NCBI GenBank assembly: GCA_965117045.1
Contig: OZ220749.1
Coordinates: forward strand, 2,309,817 to 2,373,816
Length of the DNA: 64,000 bases
Direction of reading: 5' to 3'
Origin: a bacterium
Lineage (GTDB): Bacteria > JAAXHH01
Both the position numbers and the translations under genes were made by a program. Below are positions 3,287-54,465 of this stretch, in pieces; the first letter of the stretch is position 1; each line of letters begins with the position of its first letter. A model generated the notes under the pieces. The model did not search any database. It was not told the origin of the DNA and saw only the letters and a program-made list of their open reading frames with translations.

Positions 3287-4312
3287 ATGAGCAAACCACG
3301 CATCTGGTACCTGCCGACGCCGTCCCACACCGCGGGCGTCTTCAAGGATGAGACTTACCGGCGGTTACTGGCCGGCTTCGACGTGGTGGAGAACAGGACT
3401 GACCGCGCGTTGACCGCCGGAGAGGTGGAGGATGGGATCGCCGGCTTCGACGGCCTGGTTACCGGCTGGGGCGTCCGGCCGATCAGCGGGACCGCGCTGG
3501 AGCGGGCGGACAAGCTGAAGTTCGTCGTCCACTCCGCCGGATCGGTCAAGTACCTGTTCACCCCGGAGATGGTCACCGGCTGCCTGATGCCCCGGGGGAT
3601 CCGTGTCGTCAGCGCGCGGGGCGCCATCGCCCTCAACGTGGCGGAACACGCGGTCGGCGCGCTGATCATGATGAGCCGCAGGTGGGTCCACGACGCGCTC
3701 AACATCCGTAACAGGAGCATGTGGCGGGATCCGGACAAGAACTGGTCGAACCAGTTCCTGCGCGGCGCCACGGTGGGTATCGTCAGCGCCAGCATGGTGG
3801 GACGGGAGGTGATCCGGCTGCTCCGGCCCTTCAGCGTGCGCATACTCGTCTACGATCCCTACCTGAGCGATTGGGACGCCGGCCGTATGAACGTGGAACG
3901 GGTGGACCTGAACACGCTGTTCGAGGCGTCGGACATGGTGACCATCCATGCGCCGTCCATCCCGGAGACGGACCACATGATCGGCGCGGAGCAGCTGCGG
4001 CTGTTGCGGGACGACGGCGTCCTGGTCAATACCTCGCGGGGCTCCGTCCTGGACCACGACGCGCTGTACGAAGAAGCGAAGACCGGCAGGATCCAGGTCC
4101 AGCTGGACGTGACCACGCCAGAACCCCTGCCGCCCGATCACCGTTTACGTGCCCTCCCCAACGTGGTCATCACGCCCCACAGCTCGGGCACCGGCGCTTA
4201 TGGCCATCTCGAGATCGGCGAGATCACGCTGGGCGCGCTGGAACACTTCTTCTCGGGACAGGAACCGGTGCCGGGCGAGGTGGATTTGGAAAACTGGGCG
4301 CAGATTGCGTAA
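3287..4312 (+). CDS. D-isomer-specific 2-hydroxyacid dehydrogenase family (NAD-binding) protein
   Basis: Gly-rich NAD fold GATVGIVSASMVGREV. HAPSIPETDHMIGAEQL and SRGSVLD resemble the catalytic region of this family. Confidence 0.6.
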   Translation: MSKPRIWYLPTPSHTAGVFKDETYRRLLAGFDVVENRTDRALTAGEVEDGIAGFDGLVTGWGVRPISGTALERADKLKFVVHSAGSVKYLFTPEMVTGCLMPRGIRVVSARGAIALNVAEHAVGALIMMSRRWVHDALNIRNRSMWRDPDKNWSNQFLRGATVGIVSASMVGREVIRLLRPFSVRILVYDPYLSDWDAGRMNVERVDLNTLFEASDMVTIHAPSIPETDHMIGAEQLRLLRDDGVLVNTSRGSVLDHDALYEEAKTGRIQVQLDVTTPEPLPPDHRLRALPNVVITPHSSGTGAYGHLEIGEITLGALEHFFSGQEPVPGEVDLENWAQIA

Positions 4313-4315
4313 AAC

Positions 4316-5218
4316 CTACATCCGTCGCCGCGCCGCCATCACCGTATTCTCCATCAACATGGCCACGGTCATGGGACCGACGCCCCCGATGCGGGGCGTG
4401 ATCCATCCGGCGACTTCCGCCACATCCTCGTCCACGTCGCTCAGCAGCTTCTTGCCCTTGCGCGTGATGCCCGCGGCCACCACGGCCGCACCGGGCTTGA
4501 CCATGTCCTTCGTGATCAGTCCGGGCGAACCCGCGGCGGCGATGATGATATCGGCTTCGCGGAGGTGGGCGCCCATGTCGGGCACGGCCGAATGCAGTAC
4601 CGTGACCGCCGCGTTGCAGTGGGGCCGTTTCAAGGACAGCAGGAGGGCCAGCGGGCGGCCGATGGTCAGTCCTCGGCCCACGATCGCCACGTTTTTTCCT
4701 TCGATGGGCACGCCGTAATGGACCAGCAGGGCGAGGATGCCGTTGGGCGTGCAGGGCAGGGGCCCCGGCTTGCCGATCACCAGCCGGCCCAGGTTGATGG
4801 GATTGAGCCCGTCCGCGTCCTTGTCGGGCGCCACGGAGAGCAGCGCCTCGTCCTCGTCGAGTCCATCCGGCAGCGGGATCTGCACGAGGATGGCGTCGAC
4901 CTCCGGATCCTCGTTCATGCGGCCGATGGTCTGCAGCAGTTCTTCCTGCGAAGTGGATGCGGGCAGGTGGGTGTGTATGCTGCGGATACCGATTTCCTCG
5001 CATGCCCGGTGCTTCATGGAGATGTAGGTCGCGCTGGGTCCGTCGTCGCCGACCAGGATCGTGGCCAGGCCCGGCGTGATCCCTTGCGCGCGCATTTCGG
5101 CCGTTTCTTTCGCGAGCCTTTCCTGCATCTCGTCGGCCAGCTTGCGGCCGCTCATGATGACCGGGCCTTCGCCGGAACTCATCGGCTTTCCTTTCTTATC
5201 GACATCCAGATACTCCAT
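4316..5218 (-). CDS. folD: Bifunctional methylenetetrahydrofolate dehydrogenase/cyclohydrolase FolD
   Basis: Translation matches FolD along its full length (GLATILVGDDGPSATYISMKHRACEEIGI, PDKDADGLNPINLG, AIVGRGLTIGRPLALLL). The true start is probably the internal ATG at 5182 (MSSGEG...), which has AAGGAAAG 5 nt upstream. Confidence 0.85.
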   Translation of the reverse strand: MEYLDVDKKGKPMSSGEGPVIMSGRKLADEMQERLAKETAEMRAQGITPGLATILVGDDGPSATYISMKHRACEEIGIRSIHTHLPASTSQEELLQTIGRMNEDPEVDAILVQIPLPDGLDEDEALLSVAPDKDADGLNPINLGRLVIGKPGPLPCTPNGILALLVHYGVPIEGKNVAIVGRGLTIGRPLALLLSLKRPHCNAAVTVLHSAVPDMGAHLREADIIIAAAGSPGLITKDMVKPGAAVVAAGITRKGKKLLSDVDEDVAEVAGWITPRIGGVGPMTVAMLMENTVMAARRRM

Positions 5219-5290
5219 CCAGAATCACGATCGTCCTGCACCTCGTTGAATCCTTGCGCGGATTGAATCTCAGCATCCAGGAGCGCTTCT

Positions 5291-6730
5291 CTACTCGATC
5301 CCCGCGGCTTTCTTCGCAATATCCATGCACCGCAGCAGGTCGTATCCCCGGAAGATCGTGATCTTCTGCGCCTCGAGCGAACCCTCGGCATGGATGGCCA
5401 GCAGTTCGTGGTATCCACCGAAATCCGAAGCCGTGAGGTCGCGGATGAGATTGATGGCCTTCATCCGGTCCATGGTCGGCACGCCCTTGCGGCCGCCCAG
5501 GTAACGCTCCAGGTCGCCCTTCGTCTCTTCGTTGTGCCAGTCCGCTTCCGACGGGCCCGTGACCAGCAAAGCGCCGGCGATATCCTGCACGTCCCGCACG
5601 GCCTCGTGATAATTGTTGGCGAAATGGTACTTGGCGATGTTGGTCGTGAGCGTGTCCGGCACCGCGATACCGTCCACCACCTTGCAGTCCATGGCGGCCG
5701 CGCGGGTCAGGGCGCGGACCGTCTCCGTGTAGGTGATGAGCCGCGTGGCCTTGTCGCGGATGTGGCTCGCCTTCTCCACCCCGTTGTACACGGCGATCAG
5801 CGAGGCCGCGCCGATGAAGAGGTCGAGGAGCGGCGGCTTGTAGGACACGGCGGTGAACCGGTGGAACTCCACGAAGGCGTTCGCCAGCACCCCGGCGAAG
5901 TCCCACTCGCCGGCCAGGAAGACGCGCTCGTGCGGGACGAAGACATCGTCGAACACGGTCAGGGTCTCGACCAGGTGGTGCTTCGAGCTGACCGGGTGGT
6001 GATAGTTGCTTTCGCCCGAGAACCCGAAGGGACTGGCGATGAGCCGGACGCCCGGCGTGTTGACGGGCACGGCGAAGGCCACGGCGTAGTCCTTGTCCTC
6101 TTCCGAGATCGCCCGGGTGGGCAGCACGACCACTTCGTCCACGAAGGCGGTCCCCGTGGTATGGGCCTTGGCGCCGCGGACCACGATGCCGTCGGGACGG
6201 CGCTCCACGATGCGCACGTAGTAGTCGGGATGGGTCTGCTGGGACGGCAGGCGGCTGCGGTCCCCCTTGGCATCCGTCTGGGCCACGGCCATGCTCAGGT
6301 CGCGGTCGCGGCATTCGGCGTGGTAGTTCTTCACGCGGTCCAGGTACCCGGTGCCGTACTTCTCGTCGATCTGCCGCGAGACGAGCCGGAGCGAAAACAG
6401 GGCGTCCGTGCCGATCTCCTTGATGAGCAGGACCACGCCGCTGCCCTCGCGGGTGCTCGTCTCGATCATTTCCCGGCGCTTCAGCAGGTCCTCCGTGTTG
6501 GCCGGCGGGATGAAGTAACGGCTGACGCGCTCCCCCGTCTCGGGACATGTCGCCGTGAATAGCTCGCGGTGCGCCTCGTCTTCGGCGAGGTGATAGTCCA
6601 GGGCCGTGTGCTCGGCACCCGCGCGCAGTTCCGGGTGCTCCATGAGGTCCGGCACCCGCTCGCCGCGAAAGTAGATCGTCCTGCCGTCCTGCAATCCTTC
6701 CAGGTATTGTTCGGCCGTTCTCAATCCCAT
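5291..6730 (-). CDS. 4-hydroxyphenylacetate 3-monooxygenase oxygenase component / 4-hydroxybutyryl-CoA dehydratase family protein (HpaB-like)
   Basis: 479 aa with overall similarity to the HpaB-family flavin-dependent monooxygenase fold (acyl-CoA dehydrogenase-like), judged from memory of the family. Confidence 0.6.
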   Translation of the reverse strand: MGLRTAEQYLEGLQDGRTIYFRGERVPDLMEHPELRAGAEHTALDYHLAEDEAHRELFTATCPETGERVSRYFIPPANTEDLLKRREMIETSTREGSGVVLLIKEIGTDALFSLRLVSRQIDEKYGTGYLDRVKNYHAECRDRDLSMAVAQTDAKGDRSRLPSQQTHPDYYVRIVERRPDGIVVRGAKAHTTGTAFVDEVVVLPTRAISEEDKDYAVAFAVPVNTPGVRLIASPFGFSGESNYHHPVSSKHHLVETLTVFDDVFVPHERVFLAGEWDFAGVLANAFVEFHRFTAVSYKPPLLDLFIGAASLIAVYNGVEKASHIRDKATRLITYTETVRALTRAAAMDCKVVDGIAVPDTLTTNIAKYHFANNYHEAVRDVQDIAGALLVTGPSEADWHNEETKGDLERYLGGRKGVPTMDRMKAINLIRDLTASDFGGYHELLAIHAEGSLEAQKITIFRGYDLLRCMDIAKKAAGIE

Positions 6731-42799: not shown

Positions 42800-43819
42800 T
42801 CAAAGCAATCCGGCTTGGCCCAGCCGTGCCCGCAATCCCGATATGCCTTCCTCCACGAGATCCTCCTTTCCTTCCTCCAGCCCGTAGATGATCCCGTGAC
42901 AGGAAGCCATCCAGGTGTAGAAGCGGAGCCTGTTCGCGAAATTGACGTCCAATGGGTGATGACCGCCTGACGAGCGCTGGGCGTCCAGTGAGTGCTGGAA
43001 GTCTTGCGCGTGATGACCGCCCGACGCGCGATGACCGCCTGTCCCGTGCTGATAGCCGTCTCGAATCCTCTCAACGGTCTCCATGCCATACGTGACGTAG
43101 ACTCCGACGAAATCGATGGTCGGATCGCCGACGGTCACGTCTTCGAAATCAATGAGTCCGGTCACGGTGGCTCTGTCATCGCCTACCAGGATGTGCTCGC
43201 AGCCCAGGTCGCAGTGCACCGGGGCGACGGCATCGAGCGTAGCGAGTTCCTCGTCGAGAAACCGGTTGAAACCGCGTTCGACCGCGGCAGCGGTGGTCGA
43301 TTCTAGCTGTGGCATCACGCTGACACGGACTTCATCTCTCAGTGCACGGTAGCGCTGCCGCCACCCATCGACGGTGGGTTCCACGGCACAGGCCTCGGCG
43401 ACCAGCGAGGCGGGTATGCCATGCAGTGCGGAGAGCGCGGACGCTATGGATCTGGCGGTTGCGTCGGATAGATCGCGACCGGTAAATGGGCGGCCGGACA
43501 GGGGACAACCGGGAATCCGCCGGTACCCTGCATAGGGCTGGCCGCGCCAGGTTCCCATATGCTCGAAACGCGGGACCGCAAAGTCTACCCGAGGGCCGAC
43601 AACGGGCAGAACCGCCTGCTCTTTTTGCAGGTTTTCCGCGACGACGCCGTTTCTGGGGAATCGAAAGATCCAGCCCGGAGTCGAGGACTCTGCGTATTCA
43701 TCGTGGCCACTTTGCTCGACTTCGAAAGTCCAGTAGGACCAGCCGCCCGTGATGGGGTGGATCCGGCCATGATCCAGACCGAGGCTGAGGAGCAGGTCTT
43801 CAACATCCCGGGTTGTCAC
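42800..43819 (-). CDS. Aminoglycoside phosphotransferase (APH)/choline-kinase-like family protein
   Basis: HCDLGCEHILV is Brenner's HxDxxxxN motif and IDFEDV is the DFG-like motif. Contains an SGGHH low-complexity repeat. Confidence 0.6.
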   Translation of the reverse strand: MTTRDVEDLLLSLGLDHGRIHPITGGWSYWTFEVEQSGHDEYAESSTPGWIFRFPRNGVVAENLQKEQAVLPVVGPRVDFAVPRFEHMGTWRGQPYAGYRRIPGCPLSGRPFTGRDLSDATARSIASALSALHGIPASLVAEACAVEPTVDGWRQRYRALRDEVRVSVMPQLESTTAAAVERGFNRFLDEELATLDAVAPVHCDLGCEHILVGDDRATVTGLIDFEDVTVGDPTIDFVGVYVTYGMETVERIRDGYQHGTGGHRASGGHHAQDFQHSLDAQRSSGGHHPLDVNFANRLRFYTWMASCHGIIYGLEEGKEDLVEEGISGLRARLGQAGLL

Positions 43820-43872
43820 GATTGAGTACTGAATGATGGGGTTGCCTTTTCTTGTCAGAAGGATGCGACAAT

Positions 43873-44826
43873 CTACCTGGCAATCTGTTCAAACGGCCCC
43901 AGCACAGTTTTGAACTTCTCTACACAGCACTGAGCTTCACGCATGTCGCCGGTCTCCAGGCAATAGCACAGCCCGCCGAGTTCCCTGTAGGGTAGGTGCA
44001 GTTCAACGCGCGAAAGGGCTTCAGAGCCAAACTCGCCTCCCTTCGCCTGGTATGCCTCAAGCATGCAGGTCATATATTCACGACCCAGGCGCATCTGTGG
44101 CACGAAATCGATCATTGGATCATCGAATCCCGCGTGTTCCCAGTCGAGAACCCCGGTGATCCTTGGCTCACCGGCCGAGTTGAACAGTACGTGTTCTTGC
44201 CACAGGTCACCGTGAATAAACCGGGGGTCCGGACGAACTCGTTCCAGGTCCCGGCAGTACTGCTCCCACCAGTCTTCAACTGTGCCCAGTTCGCGTGGCG
44301 TAAGGGTCGATTCCAGGTAGGATTGCGCATATGACCAGGTCTCCTCGGGCCGGGGAGCGTCGGATGATGGCAGGTCCGGCAGATCGTCCTCCCTGATCTT
44401 CTGTATGGCATGAATCAACACTCCAATTGAAGACGCGATCGGCTGAGCCCGCGTTGATCGATTTAACACTGTGCTTTGATTTGGCCCCTCGATTTCCTTC
44501 TGCATCATGACACCGAACGGGAAGTCGTCCGTTGCCTCGCAATAACCCAGGATATCCGGCACCTCAAAGGGAAGGTGGGACTTGAGCCTTGGGAGGATGT
44601 AACACTCCCTTCTGTGTCCTTTTTGTGCCTTGCTGTTCAGCGCCACCCGGAAGACCAGGCCAGCGGGACTTCCCAGGACGACGCTTTTAAAACCCGTACC
44701 AATCTTGCGAAGTGGAAGCACAGAACTGCCGAGGTCAAAGGTGCGGCGGATGCGTTCGGCCAGTGCGCTGTCGTTTTTGAATAGGTCTGAATGGGTCATC
44801 TGTAATCTGCTCTGTTGACGTAGCAT
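43873..44826 (-). CDS. APH-family phosphotransferase
   Basis: IHGDLWQEHVLFN and VLDWEHAGFDDP. Confidence 0.6.
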   Translation of the reverse strand: MLRQQSRLQMTHSDLFKNDSALAERIRRTFDLGSSVLPLRKIGTGFKSVVLGSPAGLVFRVALNSKAQKGHRRECYILPRLKSHLPFEVPDILGYCEATDDFPFGVMMQKEIEGPNQSTVLNRSTRAQPIASSIGVLIHAIQKIREDDLPDLPSSDAPRPEETWSYAQSYLESTLTPRELGTVEDWWEQYCRDLERVRPDPRFIHGDLWQEHVLFNSAGEPRITGVLDWEHAGFDDPMIDFVPQMRLGREYMTCMLEAYQAKGGEFGSEALSRVELHLPYRELGGLCYCLETGDMREAQCCVEKFKTVLGPFEQIAR

Positions 44827-44849
44827 GGATGCGGGGCTATTATGCTACT

Positions 44850-45143
44850 ATGATCATTTCGTTCCGGGGTAATGGCACTGAGGATATCTTTAATGGACGG
44901 GAAACACGCGCGGCGCGATCCACATGTCCTTCCTCACTGTGGTCTGTTGCCGTACGTAAACTTGAACAGCTGGATTCGGTAGATAGACTAGGCGACATGA
45001 ACCGTCCCCCTGGCAATCGTCTCGAGGCCCTGCGGGGTGCGCGTTTCGGGCAACACAGCATTCGAATCAACGACCAATACCGCGTGTGCTTCGTTTGGTC
45101 AGATGCTGGTCCTCGGGATGTTGAAATCGTTGATTATCACTAA
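44850..45143 (+). CDS. higB: HigB-type toxin (RelE/ParE superfamily)
   Basis: MIISFRGNG...IRINDQYRVCFVW...DVEIVDYH matches the HigB plasmid-maintenance killer. It lies directly upstream of an HTH antitoxin. Confidence 0.7.
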   Translation: MIISFRGNGTEDIFNGRETRAARSTCPSSLWSVAVRKLEQLDSVDRLGDMNRPPGNRLEALRGARFGQHSIRINDQYRVCFVWSDAGPRDVEIVDYH

Positions 45144-45165
45144 ACCGCGTTGTGAGGTGTTCATT

Positions 45166-45480
45166 ATGGTACGTGTTCCTACAGATCGTATTCCGACCCA
45201 TCCGGGTGAGATGCTGCTGGAGGAGTTCCTTATTCCGATGAAGTTGACGCAGCGTGAGTTGGCTGCCGCCCTTAACGTTCCGTACCAGCGCGTGAACGAA
45301 CTGGTCAACGGAAGACGCGGTGTTACACCAAGCACGGCGCTGCGGCTGGCCAAGTACTTCGACGTGTCGCCCTCGTTCTGGCTTAATCTCCAGCTACGTT
45401 GGGATCTGTATCACGCCATGCGGTCGGAGGCCAGTGAGTTGGAAGTGATCGAGCCTCGTAGTGTGGGCATCGAATTGTAA
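45166..45480 (+). CDS. higA: HigA-type HTH (XRE) antitoxin
   Basis: THPGEMLLEEFL...LTQRELAAALNVPYQRVNELVNGRR. GAGGTG lies upstream of the ATG at 45166. Confidence 0.75.
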   Translation: MVRVPTDRIPTHPGEMLLEEFLIPMKLTQRELAAALNVPYQRVNELVNGRRGVTPSTALRLAKYFDVSPSFWLNLQLRWDLYHAMRSEASELEVIEPRSVGIEL

Positions 45481-45539
45481 ACGACGGTCAGGCATACTGA
45501 ACTGTAGTCAGGAGAAAGATACGTGAGTTCCCGGCAACT

Positions 45540-47942
45540 TCACCCCGCCCGCAACGCATCTACCGGGTTGGCCGTGGCGGCCTTCAGCGCGTGGTATCCC
45601 ACCGTCAGCCAGGTGATGAGAAGCGCCGCAAGGCCGGCAGACACGAAAATCCATATACTCAGTTCGATGCGGTAGGGGAAGTTGTCCAGCCACGCCTGCA
45701 TCACGTAATACCCAGCCGAAGCGCCGATGACGAACGCAAGCGTAAAGAGCCTGGTGAATTCCTTCGACAGCAGCAGGACAACGTTTGAAATCGTAGCCCC
45801 GAGGACCTTGCGTACACCGATCTCCCTGGTCCGCTGCTCCGCCATGTAGGACGCGAGTCCCAGAAGTCCCAGGCAAGCGATCAGAATGGAAAGCACCGCG
45901 CCGGCGATGAAGACGGATCCCAGCCTTTGCTCGGCGGCATATTGTCGCTCGAGTTCCTGGTCCAGGAAGTAGAAATCCATGTCGGGGTGGCCTGGATACG
46001 TTTCCCGCCACTGGTCCCGAAGGATTTCAAGTCCGTGGGGAAGGTTCTGTCCCCGCAGCCTGACCACCATGAACCTGCCTTCATTCCAGTACATTACGAT
46101 CAATGGCTCAATGCGTTGATGCAGAGACTGTTGGTGAAAATCACGCATGACGCCAACGACATTCCTGGGTGGATAGGTATCGGGTGCGCCTGGATAACTG
46201 AAGGTCTTACCGATGGGATCTTCCCATCCGAAGGTTCGCGCGGCGGTTTCGTTGATCATCACGGCGTTGTTGTCCGAGACGAATTCACGCGATAACGAAC
46301 GGCCGGACTTGATTTCGATGTCCATAGTTTCCACGAAGTCGAAGTCCGCCCAGATCGTGGAGACCAGGGGCGACTGATCCTCGGGGAATCCATCGGGTTG
46401 AATCAGATTGAACGAGGTTGGCGTACCCGGCACACTGGCCGATGAGCTTACGTTTACGATTTCCGGATACTGCATGGCTCCGCGCTTATAGGCGGGATAG
46501 CCGAGCACGGCCGCTTGATCGGGAAGTCGTATGACCACCAGGTGTTCTTTGTCGAAGCCAAGCTTCTTGCTCTGTATGTACTCCACCTGATCTAGCACCA
46601 CGGCGGTACCAATGATCATGATGATCGAAACAACGAACTGGAAGATGATCAGCGCCTTTCTCAGCACCGATTGAGAAACGCCGGCATTCAACGCGCCACC
46701 CACCACCGCCGCCGGCCTGAAGGACGCGAGGACGAAGGCGGGGTACCCGCCGGCAGCGAGTCCCGTAATAAAAGCGATGGCCGCCAGGGCGGGAAGCAAC
46801 CAGGCGGATTCGTAATTCATCTCCAGCACTTTGCCGGACAACTGGTTGAACTGTGGCAGAAGCAGGTGGACCAGCCCCAGCGCCACGGCCAGCGCAACGA
46901 AAGAGAACAAGACCGACTCGCCGACAAACTGCCTGAACAGTTGAACCCGGTGGGCGCCCAGTACCTTTCGAATGCCGACCTCCTGCGTCCGCCGGGCGGC
47001 GCGGGCAGTGGAAAGGTTCATGAAATTGAAGCAGGCGAGGAGCAGTATGAAAGCGGCCACCGAGGAGAAGATGTAAACGTACCGGATATCGCTGTTCGCT
47101 TCGATCTCGTTATTCAGATTCGAATGAAGGTGGATATCGGTGAGAGATTGCAGATTGGGTCTCATTTCGACCCCGACGGACTTGAGGCGCTCGCCGAAGT
47201 ACTTGTCCATAAACTGGGGGAGTTTTCTTTCCAGATCGCCGGCTGTATATCCTTCCTTGAGCAGGAGGTAGGTATACATGGTGGAATTCAGGTTCTGTAT
47301 CGTGGTCGGCTCGAAATATATGCCCGCCGCGGCCGTTGTGGCAAAGGAGGCCAAAAAGTCCGCTCGGAAATGCGAGTTCGTCGGCAGATCCCGCATGATC
47401 CCCGTGACCGTAAACATGTACTTGTCGTCCGCGGCGATCACTTTGCCGATGGGGTTTTCATCTCCGAAGTACTTCCTAACCATGGATTCTGAAACCACCA
47501 CGGCATGGGGCTCGGCCAGGGCGGTTTTCGCATTGCCCTGAACGAGCGGGATGGTGAAAATGTCAAAGACCGATGAATCCGCCACGACAAAGTGTTTCTC
47601 ATATGACCGCTTATCGCCGTACCGAACGAGCCAACGTGAGTTCGGGGGCTTAAGCCGGGTGAAATGCTCGATTTCGGGGTATTCCATCGCCAGTACCGGC
47701 GCCCAGGAGGGAGGGGTAAACGCCGACTCGTTGATCTTGCCATCCGCGGTGTCGGTTTTCACCAGGCGGTAGATTCTATCTTTCTTCTCATGGTGCTGGT
47801 CGTAGCTGAGCTCGTCCTGCACGTAGAGCATGATTAGAATGCAACTGGTGATGCCGACGGCCAGTCCCAGCACGTTGATCGCCGAATAGCCTTTGTACCT
47901 GAGCAGGTGCCTTATCGCGGTGGCCAGGTAGTTTCTGAACAT
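45540..47942 (-). CDS. FtsX-family ABC transporter permease (800 aa), paralog of 40368-42770
   Basis: MFRNYLATAIRHLLRYKGYSAINVLGLAVGIT has the same architecture as the other 800-aa FtsX permease. Confidence 0.8.
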   Translation of the reverse strand: MFRNYLATAIRHLLRYKGYSAINVLGLAVGITSCILIMLYVQDELSYDQHHEKKDRIYRLVKTDTADGKINESAFTPPSWAPVLAMEYPEIEHFTRLKPPNSRWLVRYGDKRSYEKHFVVADSSVFDIFTIPLVQGNAKTALAEPHAVVVSESMVRKYFGDENPIGKVIAADDKYMFTVTGIMRDLPTNSHFRADFLASFATTAAAGIYFEPTTIQNLNSTMYTYLLLKEGYTAGDLERKLPQFMDKYFGERLKSVGVEMRPNLQSLTDIHLHSNLNNEIEANSDIRYVYIFSSVAAFILLLACFNFMNLSTARAARRTQEVGIRKVLGAHRVQLFRQFVGESVLFSFVALAVALGLVHLLLPQFNQLSGKVLEMNYESAWLLPALAAIAFITGLAAGGYPAFVLASFRPAAVVGGALNAGVSQSVLRKALIIFQFVVSIIMIIGTAVVLDQVEYIQSKKLGFDKEHLVVIRLPDQAAVLGYPAYKRGAMQYPEIVNVSSSASVPGTPTSFNLIQPDGFPEDQSPLVSTIWADFDFVETMDIEIKSGRSLSREFVSDNNAVMINETAARTFGWEDPIGKTFSYPGAPDTYPPRNVVGVMRDFHQQSLHQRIEPLIVMYWNEGRFMVVRLRGQNLPHGLEILRDQWRETYPGHPDMDFYFLDQELERQYAAEQRLGSVFIAGAVLSILIACLGLLGLASYMAEQRTREIGVRKVLGATISNVVLLLSKEFTRLFTLAFVIGASAGYYVMQAWLDNFPYRIELSIWIFVSAGLAALLITWLTVGYHALKAATANPVDALRAG

Positions 47943-48120
47943 GGCGCTGTCCCGGCAAGCTCGACTATCCCGGTCGTTCGGGGTATTCGGCGTGTAATGA
48001 TGCGGAAGCGTCAGGCCCGTATAATCCCGTCTGTTAGACGATTCTCATCGGACAAATGTCAAATATAACTAAAACGACTCGTGGTGTGTATCCGCGATTC
48101 GCTGCCGGCGGCCGTTCGCC

Positions 48121-48206
48121 GCGGCCACAGCTTGTGGTTCCCGGCCACAGCTTGTGGTTCCCGGCCACAGCTTGTGGTTCCCGGCTACAGCTTGTAGTTC
48201 CCGGCG
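48121..48206. repeat. 4 x 20-bp tandem repeat (ccggccacagcttgtggttc) overlapping the 3' end of the minus-strand gene
   Basis: Three perfect copies plus one degenerate copy. The degenerate copy encodes the C-terminus ...AGNYKL and the stop. Each unit contains the hairpin CCACA-gct-TGTGG. Confidence 0.8.
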
Positions 48207-49456
48207 TTGATGGTGAGTGTTCCGTCGTCGTGCTCCTCGTGCTCTTCTTGCTCCCCCTGCGCTTCATCGTCACTTTCCGCCTCTTCGGCCGCCTCGTGCA
48301 TCGTGCCTTCATTGACGACCATTCTTGCTTCTACCGCGCTCATCTGGTCCGGAAAGCAGGTTATCGTACCCCAGTTGTAAACTGCGACCAGACGATCATA
48401 CAGCATCCTGGCGTCCACGTCTTCATCGATGGTCACGTTTCCCGAATTGTACAACGTGGCGGTCCCGTCGATCAGATCCAGGCGCGACTGACGTAGCGTA
48501 AGATCGGTCTCCACGGCCCAGAGAGCGCCGCCATAGAAGATGACATCGGTGTTCAATGTATCGCATATGCCCGAGAAGACTTCGCCCAGCGGTTCCGGAC
48601 ACAGGACCCTGCCCGCGCAGACGAGTCTGTCGAGCGCCCTGGCCAATGCGTCTGCGTCCACATTCTCCTGAATGGTGACGTTGCCGCTGGCGTAGACCTT
48701 TCTCCCCTTCCATGACCGGATGCTTCCGGCGGTCAGCGACAGGTCGCGTTCGACCAGTTCATGTTCTTCAGGCACGACGGCCGTCTCTGGAGTACGGGTC
48801 CCGGAATCATACTTGGAACGAAGCACACGGACGTTTTCCGCGCAGCAGAGGACATTGCCCCTGACGTGGACGGTATTGATCTTCCGGTCGAGCGCGTCGT
48901 CCGGCACAGGCTCCGGAATCCGGAGACTCCCGGTGATGACAAGGTCCGCGCTATCGGCCAGCGATGCCAGATAGACTTCATCCAGCACGACGTCGCCGTG
49001 AACGAGTTGCGCAGAGGCCCTGTACGACGTGAGTTCGCCCATATTGGACGTCAGTTTGGTCGTAATCGGCCCGGCCACGTGCTCCGGATACAGGATGGTC
49101 CCCATGTTGATGATTTCACTCCATGATTCGTTCACTCCCTCGGCGGTGACATCCGGTTCCAGCGTGATGTTGCTCATGTTTATGACAAGAAACGGCTCTT
49201 CTCCGCCGGAAAACGCATCCCGGCCCATGATCTCATCTGACATGACCGTCTTCAGCCTGCCTTCTTTGGAGACCTCAATCACGTTTCCCAGGTTGTTGGA
49301 AAACATAGACAGATAGCCCCTGGTTTCCGGCGTCACGAGTACGTTGCCGGCATTGATATGCAAGATCCTGGACGCCACCTGTTCCGTGGTTTCCCGCATG
49401 TCCAGGTTACCGCAGTTTAGCCGAACTGAACGGGGGTCGCGTTCTTCGAGGTTCAT
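48185..49456 (-). CDS. Repeat-containing putative adhesin-like (DUF4097-like) protein, probable anti-sigma-factor partner
   Basis: Internal repeats (GNVLVTPE, GNVIEV, GNVTIQENVDADAL, GNVTIDEDVDARML) and an acidic tail. Immediately downstream of an ECF sigma gene. Start at ATG 49456 with AGGAGG upstream. Confidence 0.4.
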   Translation of the reverse strand: MNLEERDPRSVRLNCGNLDMRETTEQVASRILHINAGNVLVTPETRGYLSMFSNNLGNVIEVSKEGRLKTVMSDEIMGRDAFSGGEEPFLVINMSNITLEPDVTAEGVNESWSEIINMGTILYPEHVAGPITTKLTSNMGELTSYRASAQLVHGDVVLDEVYLASLADSADLVITGSLRIPEPVPDDALDRKINTVHVRGNVLCCAENVRVLRSKYDSGTRTPETAVVPEEHELVERDLSLTAGSIRSWKGRKVYASGNVTIQENVDADALARALDRLVCAGRVLCPEPLGEVFSGICDTLNTDVIFYGGALWAVETDLTLRQSRLDLIDGTATLYNSGNVTIDEDVDARMLYDRLVAVYNWGTITCFPDQMSAVEARMVVNEGTMHEAAEEAESDDEAQGEQEEHEEHDDGTLTINAGNYKL

Positions 49457-49554
49457 CGTTTTCCTCCTGTGCTTTGGCATGCATCCGCAATCGGGAATTT
49501 ACAACTGGGCCGCCTCGGCATCGTACTTTCCGTGTATTCGATGCCGGGGCATCG

Positions 49555-50067
49555 TCAGGCGAATCGGGTTTTTCGCGCACGCAGCTTCCTGATGGCCACG
49601 TGCAGGCGGAAACGGACCGTGGAAGCCGGAATACCCGTCCGACTGGCGATTTCCTCGCTGGTCATCCCCATCACGAAACGCATATGAAAGAGATCATGAT
49701 CTTTCTCCGGTATGTGCCTCATCATCTCCGGTAAGCTGATCGTTTCGAATAAACGTGCATCCGAATCAGACCGCCATCCGGCGGTTTTGTGGATCGACTC
49801 CTCCTTTAGGATATGATGTAATGTCCCTAGAAATGCCCTTTCCCTTTGCCGGGTACGCTGCTTGTCCACGAACAGATTGCCCATGGTCCGGAACAGCCAG
49901 GCACGTCTCCGGTGGGGCGACAGTGATTTGAGCAGACTGAGGTTTCTCATGGCCCGAATGAACGTTTCCTGTAGCAGATCGTCCGCGTTGTCTTGGTCCG
50001 CGGTCAGCCGTCGAGCGTGCTTCATCAGTTGAGCGGCATACGTTTCATAAAGATCACCGACAGTCAT
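49555..50067 (-). CDS. ECF-subfamily RNA polymerase sigma-70 factor
   Basis: Region 2 (DLLQETFIRAMRNL) and region 4 HTH (EEIASRTGIPASTVRFRLHVAIRKL). Confidence 0.8.
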   Translation of the reverse strand: MTVGDLYETYAAQLMKHARRLTADQDNADDLLQETFIRAMRNLSLLKSLSPHRRRAWLFRTMGNLFVDKQRTRQRERAFLGTLHHILKEESIHKTAGWRSDSDARLFETISLPEMMRHIPEKDHDLFHMRFVMGMTSEEIASRTGIPASTVRFRLHVAIRKLRARKTRFA

Positions 50068-50332
50068 GCGCGGATCCGATCATCAACCTGAAAGCAAATG
50101 AAATCGAAGCGGTTCTCATGTTTACGGCGACCTGGCGTCCAGGACGGTCTGCCGCGAGTGGCGCTCTACTTATTACGACGAGTCACAATGAGAAACCGTT
50201 TGAAAAAAGAACGTGAATACCTTTGTGGACGAAACTAAAACCCGGCCAGGCAAGTCAATACAGAGCGATACCTGGCACTCATGCCGTTGTGACTGATCAC
50301 CCCATCTACGAGATACCGGTCAGGGAGGGTAT

Positions 50333-51994
50333 ATGTGGCCAGCGTTGCGGGATTTCCTGAACGTACCCGAAGAGTTGACGGGAAAAGGCGTCCGTATCGC
50401 CGTCGTCGACGGCGATTTCCCGAATCACCCCGATATAACCGCGAACCCACACCGCACGACGTACAAAGTAATGGTGATGGATCCAGATCCGGAACCCAAG
50501 GAGTTCACCGCCGAACCCGGACCGTGGAAAGGCGGCGCGCACGGGCTCTGGGCCGCGGCCGCCGCGGCGGGCTCCGGTGCCGAATCCTGGGGATTGTTCA
50601 AGGGTCTGGCTCCGGATGCCGAACTCTTTCTCATCGCCCAGTATTTCCCTGGCCAGAGCCGGCAGCCGGAAAAACGCGAAGAAGCACACGTAAGATCGCT
50701 GGAGTGGATCAGGGACAACTGGCGGAAGTATGAGATACGGGGGGTTTTATCGGCAAGAAAAAGCGTTATAGACGCAAGTCTTCTGCCCTGGCAGACGGAC
50801 GCCGTCAAGATCTTGTGTGAAGAAATCGCGTCCGAGGGGGTGCTTCTTGTATCCGGTTCGGGTAACATTCCCGACCGGACGGTCGCTATGGCAGAAGCAG
50901 CGGCCCCTTCCGTTCTTTCTGTCGGCGGGGTCGTGATTCCATCGAATGGGGCTCCCCGGAGCGCGGGAGTTTTTCCCGGATGCCGGGGAACGACTTTCGA
51001 AGGTAAGTGGATACCGGAAATCCTGGCTCCGGCTGCAAACATCGTGCTGCCCCATGGGACCGACGAAGAGATCGAGCAACACTACTATGGAAAGACGGAT
51101 GAACTGCCGAACCGATATGCGCGGCTGCACGGGACCTCGTTTGCCGGACCGATCGTCCTCGGCGCCGCGGCCTGTCTGTGGCAGGCGCGGCCCGAATGGA
51201 CGAGCCAGGTAATGAAATCGGCCCTCATCGAATCGTCCATGCATCAGCCGGGGTGGGCCGACCTGCGCGCCGGCCTCGTTTCGGTCCGGGCCGCCCTGGG
51301 CTCGAAGCCATCGGCAGTCCGGCGTGACCACGTAATCTGGCCCCGCCAGATCCGGACCGTGTTACGCTCGCTATCGGTAGCGTCCAGACTGGGGATGCTG
51401 GGAGATAGCGATCCGGAACACGTGATAGCGGCCATCCTATCTTACGTTGGGGGCGAGGACGCGCTGCCGGACGAAGTCCTGATACCCTTCCGGACGTGCT
51501 TGCGACATCCGGATCCCCGCGTCCGCGCCGCTGCGCTGTGTGCCCTTGCCATGGGAACCTCTCCGGTAAACGCTTCCGAGATTCTCGAAGCGCTCAGAGA
51601 CGATTCTCCCTTCGTCCGCGCCGCCATCATATACCTGCTGTGCAATCATTCGGATCTGTGGTCCGACAGCGCCAAGGTGTTGCCGGACCTCTTCAACGAT
51701 ACGAATCCGGATGTCCGCTACGCGGCTCTTCAACTCGCCGGACGGATGGCGGACCCGCGAATGGCCGGCGCAATCCTGGCCGGCATGGAGGAGGACGCCT
51801 GGGCGAATCGAATCTCGAGCTTTGGAGCCCGGAGAGTGGCCCTGGAGGCGATAACAGGCCATCGGCTGGATGTGAAGCCGCCTTACAGGCACGGTGAGCC
51901 GTTCTATTCCGACGACCGCCGCGCATCCAGGCTGGATCTCGCACGCCGGTGGAACGAGTGGATCCGGGAAGAGTGGTTGCCGGGGCGTGCGTAG
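50333..51994 (+). CDS. S8 (subtilisin-like) serine peptidase fused to C-terminal HEAT-repeat domain
   Basis: Catalytic triad context: VVDGDFPNHPD (Asp), HGLWAAA (His) and GTSFAGPIV (Ser). The C-terminal third has PDPRVRAAALCAL, DSPFVRAAIIYLL and NPDVRYAALQLAG, which are HEAT-like. Confidence 0.7.
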   Translation: MWPALRDFLNVPEELTGKGVRIAVVDGDFPNHPDITANPHRTTYKVMVMDPDPEPKEFTAEPGPWKGGAHGLWAAAAAAGSGAESWGLFKGLAPDAELFLIAQYFPGQSRQPEKREEAHVRSLEWIRDNWRKYEIRGVLSARKSVIDASLLPWQTDAVKILCEEIASEGVLLVSGSGNIPDRTVAMAEAAAPSVLSVGGVVIPSNGAPRSAGVFPGCRGTTFEGKWIPEILAPAANIVLPHGTDEEIEQHYYGKTDELPNRYARLHGTSFAGPIVLGAAACLWQARPEWTSQVMKSALIESSMHQPGWADLRAGLVSVRAALGSKPSAVRRDHVIWPRQIRTVLRSLSVASRLGMLGDSDPEHVIAAILSYVGGEDALPDEVLIPFRTCLRHPDPRVRAAALCALAMGTSPVNASEILEALRDDSPFVRAAIIYLLCNHSDLWSDSAKVLPDLFNDTNPDVRYAALQLAGRMADPRMAGAILAGMEEDAWANRISSFGARRVALEAITGHRLDVKPPYRHGEPFYSDDRRASRLDLARRWNEWIREEWLPGRA

Positions 51995-52023
51995 GGTCTC
52001 GCCCATTCATTTACGAAGAAGAA

Positions 52024-52192
52024 ATGGGTATCAATGTACGGCTATATCTCTTGTCGTTTAACGGTAAGCGTTGTACTTAAAGTGCGGCGATCGCGCTGGC
52101 CAGTACAGCATAAGGATAAACGCAAAGTGGCGTATATGCTTCACGTAGAGAAACGGCGATGCATACGATGTTGAAATCGTGGAATATCATTT
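52024..52192 (+). pseudogene. higB: Decayed higB toxin remnant upstream of intact higA
   Basis: Conceptual translation across frames gives ...FNGKRCT*...DRAGQYSIRINAKWRICFT*...DAYDVEIVEYH. This parallels the intact HigB (LRGARFGQHSIRINDQYRVCFVW...DVEIVDYH) but has a deletion, two in-frame stops and a frameshift. Confidence 0.55.
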
Positions 52193-52204
52193 GGAGACCG
52201 TGCC

Positions 52205-52525
52205 ATGCGTAATGAGAAACTGGCTCCTGTACACCCAGGCGGGATTCTTATGGAAGAGTTCCTTAAGCCGATGAATCTGAGTCAGAACCGGCTTGCACTT
52301 TCCATGGGCGTACCCGCACGTTGCATCAACGAAATCGTCCTTGGGAAGCGAGTAATTACCGCCGATACCGCCCTTAGACTGGCGCGCTACTTCGGCATGC
52401 CGCCCCAATTTTGGATGGGCATTCAGATGGACTATGCGCTTGATGTTGCCGAAGACGAACTCTCAGATCGACTGGCGCACGAGGTTCGACCTCATCCAGA
52501 TTCGAAACGGGTGACATCTTCTTGA
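52205..52525 (+). CDS. higA: HigA-type HTH antitoxin (orphan, paralog of 45166-45480)
   Basis: VHPGGILMEEFLKPMNLSQNRLALSMGVPARCINEIVLGKR is about 55% identical to the first HigA. Confidence 0.75.
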   Translation: MRNEKLAPVHPGGILMEEFLKPMNLSQNRLALSMGVPARCINEIVLGKRVITADTALRLARYFGMPPQFWMGIQMDYALDVAEDELSDRLAHEVRPHPDSKRVTSS

Positions 52526-53214
52526 ACATCACCGCAATTTCCTTCGACGTCGACCAGACCCTGATCGACACGGACCGGATCATCATGCGATCCATGGAGT
52601 CCGTTCGCGATGAACTGATTAAGCGCGTACCGGGCTTGCGAACCAGGAGCCTGACGGTAGAGGAGATGTGGTCTATTCGCGATCGGGAAGAGAAAGGTTA
52701 CACGGGAAATGTGAGAGACTTCGACGAGATCCGGCGGAGGTCTTTCCTCCGGATGCTTGATCATGTCGGATACACGGGCCCCGATCTCTCGACGCGTCTC
52801 AACGAAGTATACCTGGAGCACCGGTACAACGACCTCGAGCCTTACGAAGATGTCGTCCCCATGCTCAATGCCCTCGGTCCGTGCTTCAAACTCGGTCTGC
52901 TGTCGAACGGCAACAACTACCCGGAGTACTTCGGACTCGCGGATCGTTTTGACTTTTCCGTCTATGCCCAGGATATCGGTATTGAGAAGCCGGATCCGAG
53001 GACGTTTCAGATTGCGGTCGAACAGTCGGGTTGTAGTCTGGACGAACTGCTACACGTGGGAGATTCGCTGGAATCCGACATCGAAGGCGCGCAGGCCGTC
53101 GGGATACGCGCGGTGTGGCTGAACCGCCATGGCGCGTCCAACGATACGGGTATCAAACCCGACTATGAAATCCGCTCATTAACCGAACTGCCTGGCCTGT
53201 TGAGTTTGGGTTGA
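52522..53214 (+). CDS. HAD-family hydrolase
   Basis: Motif I FDVDQTL, motif III K, and motif IV GDSLESD. TTG start overlapping the higA stop. Confidence 0.65.
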   Translation: MNITAISFDVDQTLIDTDRIIMRSMESVRDELIKRVPGLRTRSLTVEEMWSIRDREEKGYTGNVRDFDEIRRRSFLRMLDHVGYTGPDLSTRLNEVYLEHRYNDLEPYEDVVPMLNALGPCFKLGLLSNGNNYPEYFGLADRFDFSVYAQDIGIEKPDPRTFQIAVEQSGCSLDELLHVGDSLESDIEGAQAVGIRAVWLNRHGASNDTGIKPDYEIRSLTELPGLLSLG

Positions 53215-53286
53215 GACGAATTCGAGACGTATTCACGTGCAGCCAAAGTCAAGAAACATCATTCGGACTGGGAACATCATTCGGAC

Positions 53287-53868
53287 ATGTCAGATCCCTT
53301 TGCCGGACACCAGATACATCTGCAAACCGCTCGCCTACGTCTTCGTCCTTTCCGGGAGGCGGATTTCGAGGTCGCGGCGGCCTATTACCAGGATCCCGAA
53401 TTCCTGAATGCCATGGAAGGAGAACCGCCGGACGAGCCTCCGACGGCGAATTCACTCAAACGGGTGGGCAGGATCATGGCGGAGCAAGGGTTCCTCTTTG
53501 CCATCGTGGAAAGGGCGAGCGGCCGGACGATCGGCGAAGTTTGCCTTCAGTGGATGAATCTGGACCGCGCGAAAGTCGTGGGCGAGAAGGTGATGCGCAT
53601 GCCGATCGGGATTTGGGACAAGTCCTTGTGGGGCCGGGGATACGGCAAGGAAGTAGTATGCTGTTTGATGGAATATGCGTTTCAGATGCTGGAAATCGAC
53701 CGGCTTCGTCCCGTGGATGTTTCCGCGGACAACGCCCGTTCCGTCGCGCTATGGCAAGCCTGCGGACTGACGATCGCTGGTGAATCGTCGGACGGAAAGT
53801 TAGATTTCGAGATCACGCGGTCGGAATACGTCCCCCAACGCCCGTTTCATCCTACAAAGAACCCATAA
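53287..53868 (+). CDS. GNAT family N-acetyltransferase (RimJ/RimL-like)
   Basis: LRLRPFREADFE and WGRGYGKEVVCCLMEYAF match the GNAT core. Confidence 0.6.
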   Translation: MSDPFAGHQIHLQTARLRLRPFREADFEVAAAYYQDPEFLNAMEGEPPDEPPTANSLKRVGRIMAEQGFLFAIVERASGRTIGEVCLQWMNLDRAKVVGEKVMRMPIGIWDKSLWGRGYGKEVVCCLMEYAFQMLEIDRLRPVDVSADNARSVALWQACGLTIAGESSDGKLDFEITRSEYVPQRPFHPTKNP

Positions 53869-53897
53869 GAGCGACTCGACGAAGGAACGGATTCGAT

Positions 53898-54383
53898 CTA
53901 CTCCACTCGGCAGAACGCCAGCCGCTCTCCGACGAATCCCTCGCGCCAGACGCTGTTGCACGCCTCCACCATCTCCTCGAGGTTCTCCGTGACTTCGGCG
54001 AAACGATTTCCGGGGACCAGCCCCATGTTGGGCGACAGGATCAGATTATCCCGACCGTAGAAGATCGCGAGATCGACCAGGCCCGTGCTAAAGGCGGCCT
54101 CACACAACAATGGGACGTTGACGGCGCCGGGCGGGAAGTAGAAGTAGAGCAGGTCGCCGGTGATCGGGGTAATAGTGGGATTCTCCATACCTGGCTCGCA
54201 CGCCGCGAAGGGTGGGACAAGGGTATAGACCTCGTTGCTCGCGTACTTGGCGTGATAGGCATCATTCTCCTGCGGCAGGGCATTCCACATCGCCTCGCAC
54301 GTCTTCGGTGCAAGGTCATCGAGCAGCCGTGCGACGCAACTCACACCGCGTTTTCTCAAGGTCACTTCGATAAATCGATCCAT
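53898..54383 (-). CDS. Hypothetical protein, possibly cyclophilin-like DUF3830 family
   Basis: 161 aa. The DUF3830 assignment is from memory of family length and pattern only. Confidence 0.25.
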   Translation of the reverse strand: MDRFIEVTLRKRGVSCVARLLDDLAPKTCEAMWNALPQENDAYHAKYASNEVYTLVPPFAACEPGMENPTITPITGDLLYFYFPPGAVNVPLLCEAAFSTGLVDLAIFYGRDNLILSPNMGLVPGNRFAEVTENLEEMVEACNSVWREGFVGERLAFCRVE

Positions 54384-54465
54384 GCCGGTCTCCTATCGTC
54401 CTTGTAAAGCATCCTGGTTTCAGGCAAAACTGGTTCTTTCCCTTTCGAACACATCCGTCCGGATA

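Follow-up and report, generated by a model that had tools for sequence, protein, structure and literature searches.

A higB pseudogene and an orphan higA: a chromosomal toxin-antitoxin module probably caught in mid-decay

Background

Is a higA antitoxin gene that stands without a functional higB toxin gene the residue of a duplicated toxin-antitoxin (TA) pair, an older module in decay, or a gene kept for a use of its own? The question is raised by a stretch of 64,000 nucleotides (nt) of bacterial DNA (assembly GCA_965117045.1, contig OZ220749.1, positions 2,309,817 to 2,373,816; hereafter the window), in which two HigBA-type loci occur. Locus 1 holds an intact higB1-higA1 pair, while at locus 2 an intact higA2 is preceded by the remains of a toxin gene, higB2. 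A first-pass annotation of this DNA took the arrangement for a HigBA duplication in which one toxin copy had decayed.

Type II TA modules decay toxin-first only, because a stable toxin is set free once its labile antitoxin is gone (PMC2654758; PMC7192599). Orphan antitoxins are abundant, and proposals for them include anti-addiction modules, cross-interacting partners and mere remnants (PMC2654758; PMC7192599). The comparisons presented here indicate, with a probability of about 0.85, that locus 2 is a chromosomal type II module of the GraTA/Pseudomonas aeruginosa HigBA type in mid-decay, and that it did not originate by copying of locus 1.

Results and discussion

The toxin gene of locus 2 is a remnant

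Intact HigB2 orthologues (from related loci L004 and L015), searched against the whole window by tblastn, matched 52086-52190 over residues 59-93 of 93, with 80% identity (E = 1e-16 to 2e-17). HigB1 matched the same stretch (54% identity, E = 1.7e-8). Judged from both sets of matches, the homology of the remnant to HigB is far beyond chance. The translated remnant aligns with positions 58-91 of the 91 in PF05015 (E = 5.9e-5) at 23.9 bits, under the 27-bit gathering cut-off. HigB1 reaches 51.3 bits against the same cut-off, so a full-length toxin is encoded at locus 1 only.

In single-frame translation, the stretch 5' of higA2 reads GDRAGQYSIRINAKWRICFT, a stop and RNGDAYDVEIVEYH. The ancestral GTG start codon, as used in L004, is retained. 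Directly after it 170 nt are deleted, comprising codons 2-57 and two bases of codon 58 (junction 52084/52085), which fuses the GTG out of frame to codon 58/59. Codons 59-93 are all that persist, and they contain a nonsense change (TGG to TAG, 52146-52148), the sole in-frame stop inside the remnant. The ancestral stop codon is lost as well (TAG to TTG, 52191-52193), and locus 2 thus has no intact toxin open reading frame (ORF). These details amend the earlier description of a 170-nt relic with a deletion, two in-frame stops and a frameshift. The HigB homology holds, whereas the coding remnant measures 105 nt in one frame. The deletion is present, is itself 170 nt long and, being out of frame relative to the GTG, accounts for what had been counted as a separate frameshift. 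One in-frame stop stands, and the other stops that were counted lie in the promoter/operator, 5' of the ancestral start.

Both loci have the reversed gene order of HigBA systems. At locus 1 the toxin gene lies directly 5' of the antitoxin gene, and at locus 2 the order is still toxin-first, the remnant ending at 52190-93. The intact pair and the intact second higA of the first-pass annotation are both confirmed (Table 1); HigA1 scores 106.7 bits against TIGR02607 (cut-off 47.7 bits). With no functional cognate toxin gene adjoining it, higA2 is an orphan antitoxin gene. The 35 codons of the higB2 remnant differ from those of intact orthologues mainly at synonymous sites (dN/dS, the ratio of nonsynonymous to synonymous substitution rates, 0.06-0.11), which points to a comparatively recent inactivation of the toxin gene in the window.

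It is very improbable that these lesions are sequencing or assembly errors in a toxin gene that is really intact, a reading for which nothing speaks except the errors that long-read metagenome assemblies generally contain. A second ENA assembly (L001) shares 98.4% identity with the window over 12.3 kb, yet has zero mismatches between 47217 and 53044; the lesions therefore occur in an independent assembly too and are not an error of one record. Moreover, a 170-nt deletion is unlike a homopolymer-type error, and other, independent deletions are found in related genomes.

A small functional ORF within the remnant was considered and rejected, as the 46-amino-acid (aa) ORF at 52034-52174 is an out-of-frame read-through from the old start region. 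An Rfam search of 43500-54000 returned no RNA family at E ≤ 0.1, a tRNA search of the window returned none, and a sigma-70 scan gave no consensus site for a promoter inside the surviving 3' part of higB2.

The two loci are separate HigBA lineages

The two loci are of the same families and lie on the same strand, 6.7 kb apart, and this is what a recent duplication of locus 1, followed by selective decay of one toxin copy, has in its favour. Copies of such an event would be mutually closest and highly identical, and these are neither. HigA1 and HigA2, previously described as closely related, agree at 50% of residues over 72 aa. Between HigB1 and intact HigB2 orthologues the identity is 44-47%, and the remnant resembles orthologous HigB2 much more closely than it does HigB1. 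Related genomes contain separate orthologues of both loci, with 84-91% identity and in varying relative positions (for higB1, 86-88% in L004 and L018). HigA2 also has homologues in other genomes at 64-87% identity, under record labels that include Latescibacterota, Anaerolineae, cyanobacteria and Planctomycetota. The operators are unlike each other (GTAGCAT-N15-ATGCTAC at locus 1, AACG-N5-CGTT at locus 2), and nucleotide alignment of the two loci detects family-level similarity only, with no duplication signal. In view of the low identities and the separate orthologues, HigBA1 and HigBA2 are best described as two old, distinct HigBA lineages that lie near each other by chance. The duplication proposed in the first-pass annotation is hardly credible.

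Table 1. Features of the two Hig loci in the window (positions are those of the window)
Feature	Position	Strand	Description	Evidence
higBA1 promoter-like site	44815-44843	+	TTGACG-17-TATTAT	sequence scan
Inverted repeat, putative HigA1 operator	44820-44848	+	GTAGCAT-N15-ATGCTAC; overlaps higBA1 promoter-like site	
higB1	44850-45143	+	intact toxin gene, 97 aa, HigB/RelE-type	PF05015 E = 1.7e-13, profile 17-91/91
higA1	45166-45480	+	intact antitoxin gene, 104 aa, HTH-XRE	TIGR02607 E = 4.1e-31; PF01381
higBA2 promoter/operator remnant	52051-52079	+		alignment with 17 related and 52 intact loci
-35 of locus 2	52051-52056	+	TTGTCG	
Operator palindrome of locus 2	52060-52072	+	AACG-GTAAG-CGTT	
-10 of locus 2	52074-52079	+	TACTTA, degraded	relatives TATATT/TATACT, family TATAnT
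Ancestral higB2 start codon	52082-52084	+	GTG, retained	alignment of related loci
higB2 pseudogene remnant	52086-52190	+	codons 59-93, 105 nt, one frame	
higA2 ribosome-binding site	52193-52197	+	GGAGA, 7 nt before ATG	(T)AGGAGA conserved in all relatives
higA2	52205-52525	+	intact orphan antitoxin gene, 106 aa, HTH-XRE	TIGR02607 E = 4e-28

Toxin loss is recurrent among relatives

Retention of the antitoxin after loss of the toxin, as suggested in the first-pass annotation, is supported by comparative data and proves to be recurrent in the lineage. When a single genome was scanned for each species, 80 loci were recovered. Across 83 loci, higB was full-length in 51, partial in 20 (in 2 of them because the contig ended) and missing from 12. 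The clade of the window is taken as the genomes with the 106-aa form of HigA2, which mostly have chromosomes of 3.7-3.9 Mb and records titled 'MAG: bacterium' (MAG, metagenome-assembled genome), Latescibacterota or Gemmatimonadota.

In this clade, higB2 is full-length at L002, L004, L015 and L028, and full-length with its stop codon lost at L006. It is nearly wholly deleted at L005 and L032, where about 10 N-terminal codons remain, and has suffered near-total loss at L007. Central deletions occur at L008 and L010 and a different one at L012, a 3' deletion at L009 and a deletion from the promoter to codon 69 at L018. At L003, L082 and L083 the higA1 3' flank is joined to approximately codon 66. 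When grouped by synonymous distance, these losses represent at least six independent deletions of higB2 among 17 other related genomes taken from species-level assemblies, the window not counted, with higA2 intact. The promoter/operator is kept in most toxin-less higBA2 loci. Early-stage lesions are seen at L006 (3708-4000), where the stop of the full-length higB2 ORF is replaced by CAG and the C-terminus is altered to VENEDYH, and at L011 (3711-3985), which has a frameshift near codon 65.

A deletion endpoint common to the window and L003/L082/L083 was considered and rejected, as the L003-type left flank is homologous to the higA1 3' flank, which accounts better for the apparent match at codons 58-59. 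The junctions of the window and of these three loci appear to differ, on somewhat ambiguous evidence.

The locus-1 family decays likewise. L003 and L083 lack higB1 and retain its promoter and higA1, which leaves two tandem orphan antitoxins. The higBA1 promoter/operator element is conserved 5' of higB1 orthologues and is still present in L083 despite the deletion of higB1. HigA1 of L082 is also without about 25 N-terminal codons, which, judged from the comparison of these loci, is a later stage of decay. The tandem orphan antitoxins of these closest relatives are located at 3380-4320 (L003), 4380-5320 (L082) and 4340-5320 (L083), and higB2 is a heavily mutated relic there.

Orphan HigA2 is constrained in relatives

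In all pairwise comparisons, dN/dS of higA2 was 0.04-0.2. L003, L082 and L083 share a toxin-less junction, and their divergence therefore followed toxin loss. In these three, the dN/dS ratio (omega) of higA2 was 0.07-0.12 over a dS of 0.4-0.6, and neutrality was rejected (binomial P = 5e-9 to 9e-11). Other pairs sharing a deletion gave similar estimates (omega 0.13 for L005/L032 and 0.08 for L008/L010). An estimate from the L082/L083 higB2 remnants was discarded, as indels break register. Purifying selection after toxin loss is thus seen in the relatives, which argues for some selectable role of orphan HigA2 in the clade, though not for HigB1 neutralisation in particular. As L003, L082 and L083 are also without higB1, it is not the local HigB1 that maintains their HigA2.

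The locus-2 promoter/operator is partly degraded

The promoter/operator of higBA2 was defined from an alignment of 400 nt 5' of higA2 from 17 related loci, a focused alignment, and 52 upstream regions with full-length higB. The element conserved among related loci is TTGAC(G/A)-TTTAACG-N5-CGTTA-TATAnT, whose palindrome occupies the stretch from the -35 to the -10; the family-consensus operator is TTGACGTTTAACG-N5-CGTTATATAT. Palindromic operator elements overlapping the promoter are present and conserved at both loci, consistent with putative autoregulation, and at locus 2 of the window the -10 is degraded. A simple sigma-70 scan of 51700-52700 found no promoter site, and the single terminator-like match in that region is the locus-2 operator palindrome itself. 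The S8 peptidase gene 5' of higA2, on the same strand, ends at 51994. As the -10 is degraded, transcription of higA2 in the window probably occurs by read-through from the S8 peptidase gene.

In both Hig families the -10 hexamer ends 6-9 nt before the higB start and no Shine-Dalgarno sequence is present (44838-44852 in the window; 52 related loci). The -10 being so near the start codon, and with no Shine-Dalgarno sequence, higB mRNAs are probably leaderless, in contrast to higA with its strong GGAGA site.

HigA2 of the window may be drifting

HigA2 of the window carries five lineage-specific replacements (E13G, R40C, G50V, S66P and E91A). Among the 119 nearest cluster representatives, E13G, G50V and S66P each occur in none and R40C in two. 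The branch leading to this higA2 has 5 nonsynonymous and 2 synonymous changes, compared with 5 and 16 on three sister branches pooled. HigA2 aligns gaplessly to residues 5-96 of P. aeruginosa HigA (PaHigA; 6JPI/7CSV; E = 6e-19). In this alignment position 40 corresponds to PaHigA Thr40 and position 50 adjoins PaHigA Arg49, residues which are essential to specific operator DNA binding according to mutagenesis (PMC6987408). Two of the replacements at conserved positions thus fall in the DNA-reading region.

Several results weigh against an antitoxin in decay. The HigA2 ORF is complete and scores 97.1 bits against TIGR02607 (cut-off 47.7 bits), the operator palindrome AACG-N5-CGTT is still exact, and the branch contrast for relaxed constraint is non-significant (Fisher P = 0.063). 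As an outlier control, deviations were counted at positions ≥ 95% conserved across 120 HigA2 sequences. The window sequence ranks in the top 7 of the 120, with 6 of the 119 others having as many deviations or more. This ranking led to rejection of the window HigA2 as an extreme outlier, and the claim of incipient decay was lowered to suggestive. When the four other most deviant HigA2 homologues were looked up, all were toxin-less or had a truncated HigB. Because of the replacements, the toxin loss of the deviant homologues and the degraded -10, relaxed constraint on HigA2 of the window is suggested, not conclusively.

R40C recurs in three HigA2 homologues (P0036, P0038 and that of the window), all three of which are without an intact toxin. 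The two most deviant homologues, P0089 and P0081, are also orphans; loci L086-L088 were among those compared here.

The alternative is that the orphan HigA2 of the window is actively maintained, be it as an anti-addiction or immunity factor against incoming HigBA2-type modules, as a cross-neutraliser of HigB1 or of another, paralogous toxin, or in the role of transcription factor; anti-addiction and cross-neutralisation had been suggested in the first-pass annotation. This fits with the strong purifying selection on orphan HigA2 where relatives have an old toxin loss in common, and with the promoter/operator kept in most toxin-less loci. The family is spread across many phyla, which makes incoming homologous modules plausible, and roles of this kind have been proposed for orphan antitoxins, with PaHigA regulating other genes (PMC7192599; PMC2654758; PMC6987408). 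However, L003, L082 and L083 keep a constrained HigA2 though higB1 is lost, so HigA2 is not selected there by local HigB1; the toxins of the two loci are just 44-54% identical and the antitoxins 50%; and the window copy has substitutions at conserved residues as well as a degraded -10. Active maintenance in the window is therefore worth weighing, though somewhat improbable. That HigA2 neutralises HigB1 is a possibility without support, because the proteins are 50% diverged and constrained HigA2 persists where HigB1 is gone. Because of the degraded -10 and the replacements at conserved positions, including the DNA-reading head, it is slightly more likely that HigA2 of the window is drifting than that it is a maintained, fully functional antitoxin.

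A model of decay

At locus 2 the 170-nt out-of-frame deletion knocked out the toxin gene, which afterwards gained the nonsense codon and lost its stop. What outlasted the toxin was the antitoxin ORF with its ribosome-binding site and the greater part of the promoter/operator. This order was presumably forced, since loss of the antitoxin first would poison the cell and only toxin-first lesions would be tolerated. Once the toxin was lost, the antitoxin would be free to drift, or some other use would preserve it. In the clade, candidate roles of orphan HigA2 are those of an autoregulated HTH repressor, of immunity against incoming HigBA2-type modules, or of a neutraliser of a paralogous toxin; the repressor and immunity roles could also be combined.

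A broader reading is that orphan HigA has been domesticated in this lineage, as standing immunity against HigBA-bearing mobile elements or as stand-alone regulators, and that the window offers a fresh instance. This reading is tentative and rather doubtful. It builds on the repeated independent deletions of HigB, with operator and antitoxin kept under purifying selection, sometimes as tandem orphans.

Gene neighbourhood

The gene set at 42800-54400 is reshuffled in order and orientation among L002-L018, L028, L032, L082 and L083, with the Hig loci at junctions. It includes two APH kinases, a MacB/FtsX permease, a 431-aa protein without a Pfam hit, an ECF sigma factor, an S8 peptidase with HEAT repeats, and HAD, GNAT and DUF3830 genes. 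The adjacency of S8 peptidase and higBA2 also occurs in 6-Mb Latescibacterota (loci L014 and L016).

The gene for the 431-aa protein, which has an acidic C-terminal tail and no Pfam hit on record (48185-49480, minus strand), lies directly 3' of the ECF-type sigma-70 gene (49555-50067, minus strand). The pair is conserved in relatives with 54-57% identity and could form a sigma/anti-sigma or sigma-regulated unit.

The TGA stop of higA2 overlaps the TTG codon called as start for the HAD hydrolase gene that lies downstream (52522-52525), a layout that is the same in L082. Because of this overlap, the HAD-GNAT genes may be co-transcribed with higA2.

Significance

Toxin-first decay and orphan antitoxins are already known, and locus 2 adds a new, well-resolved case from an uncultivated lineage but nothing categorically new. 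Recurrent independent toxin deletions that spare the operator are a modestly interesting addition. For annotation, the proper entry for locus 2 is a higB pseudogene with an orphan higA, not part of a duplicated TA pair. With its many toxin deletions, operators kept, orphan dN/dS of about 0.1 and later truncation of the antitoxin, the clade is a modestly useful natural experiment on the death of type II TA modules. It could be used to distinguish selection of orphan antitoxins as immunity factors or regulators from decay that is simply slow.

Comparison with known systems

The closest characterized counterparts are GraTA of Pseudomonas putida and HigBA of P. aeruginosa (PDB 6F8S, 6FIX, 6JPI and 7CSV), which combine a PF05015 toxin with a TIGR02607 HTH-XRE antitoxin. 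The toxin-first order of both window loci is that of GraTA and PaHigBA, and an intact HigB2 orthologue matches GraT (6F8S_B, E = 1.2e-22). Unlike in these systems, the toxin of locus 2 is a pseudogene, and the functions of the window proteins are predicted from sequence. As for PaHigA and GraA (PMC6987408), the operator of locus 2 is of the TAAC/GTTA half-site type and overlaps the promoter. In contrast to their contiguous TTAAC GTTAA, the AACG-N5-CGTT of locus 2 lies within the -35/-10 spacer.

The closest parallels in decay are ccdO157 of Escherichia coli (Mine et al. 2009, as cited in PMC2654758) and the orphan antitoxins of Klebsiella (Horesh et al. 2020, PMC7192599). ccdO157, as described in that citation, is likewise a chromosomal type II system with an inactivated toxin and a persisting antitoxin ORF, and in Klebsiella, as in the present clade, orphans are frequent in the population. 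The candidate roles proposed for them are the same: anti-addiction, cross-talk or remnant. These cases involve CcdAB and other families, whereas the family here is HigBA; the genomes compared here are species-level members of an uncultivated lineage and not strains of one species; and the inactivating events here are mostly deletions, whose breakpoints differ and which leave the promoter/operator in place.

For a possible use of orphan HigA2, the ccdEch system of Erwinia chrysanthemi offers a comparison. In its relation to the F-plasmid ccd, as cited in PMC2654758 (Saavedra De Bast et al. 2008), it resembles the present case in that a chromosomal antitoxin could neutralise an incoming homologous toxin. 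According to the same citation, ccdEch comprises both toxin and antitoxin and its protective effect has been demonstrated, whereas the window has an orphan antitoxin only, for which neutralisation would be a candidate function.

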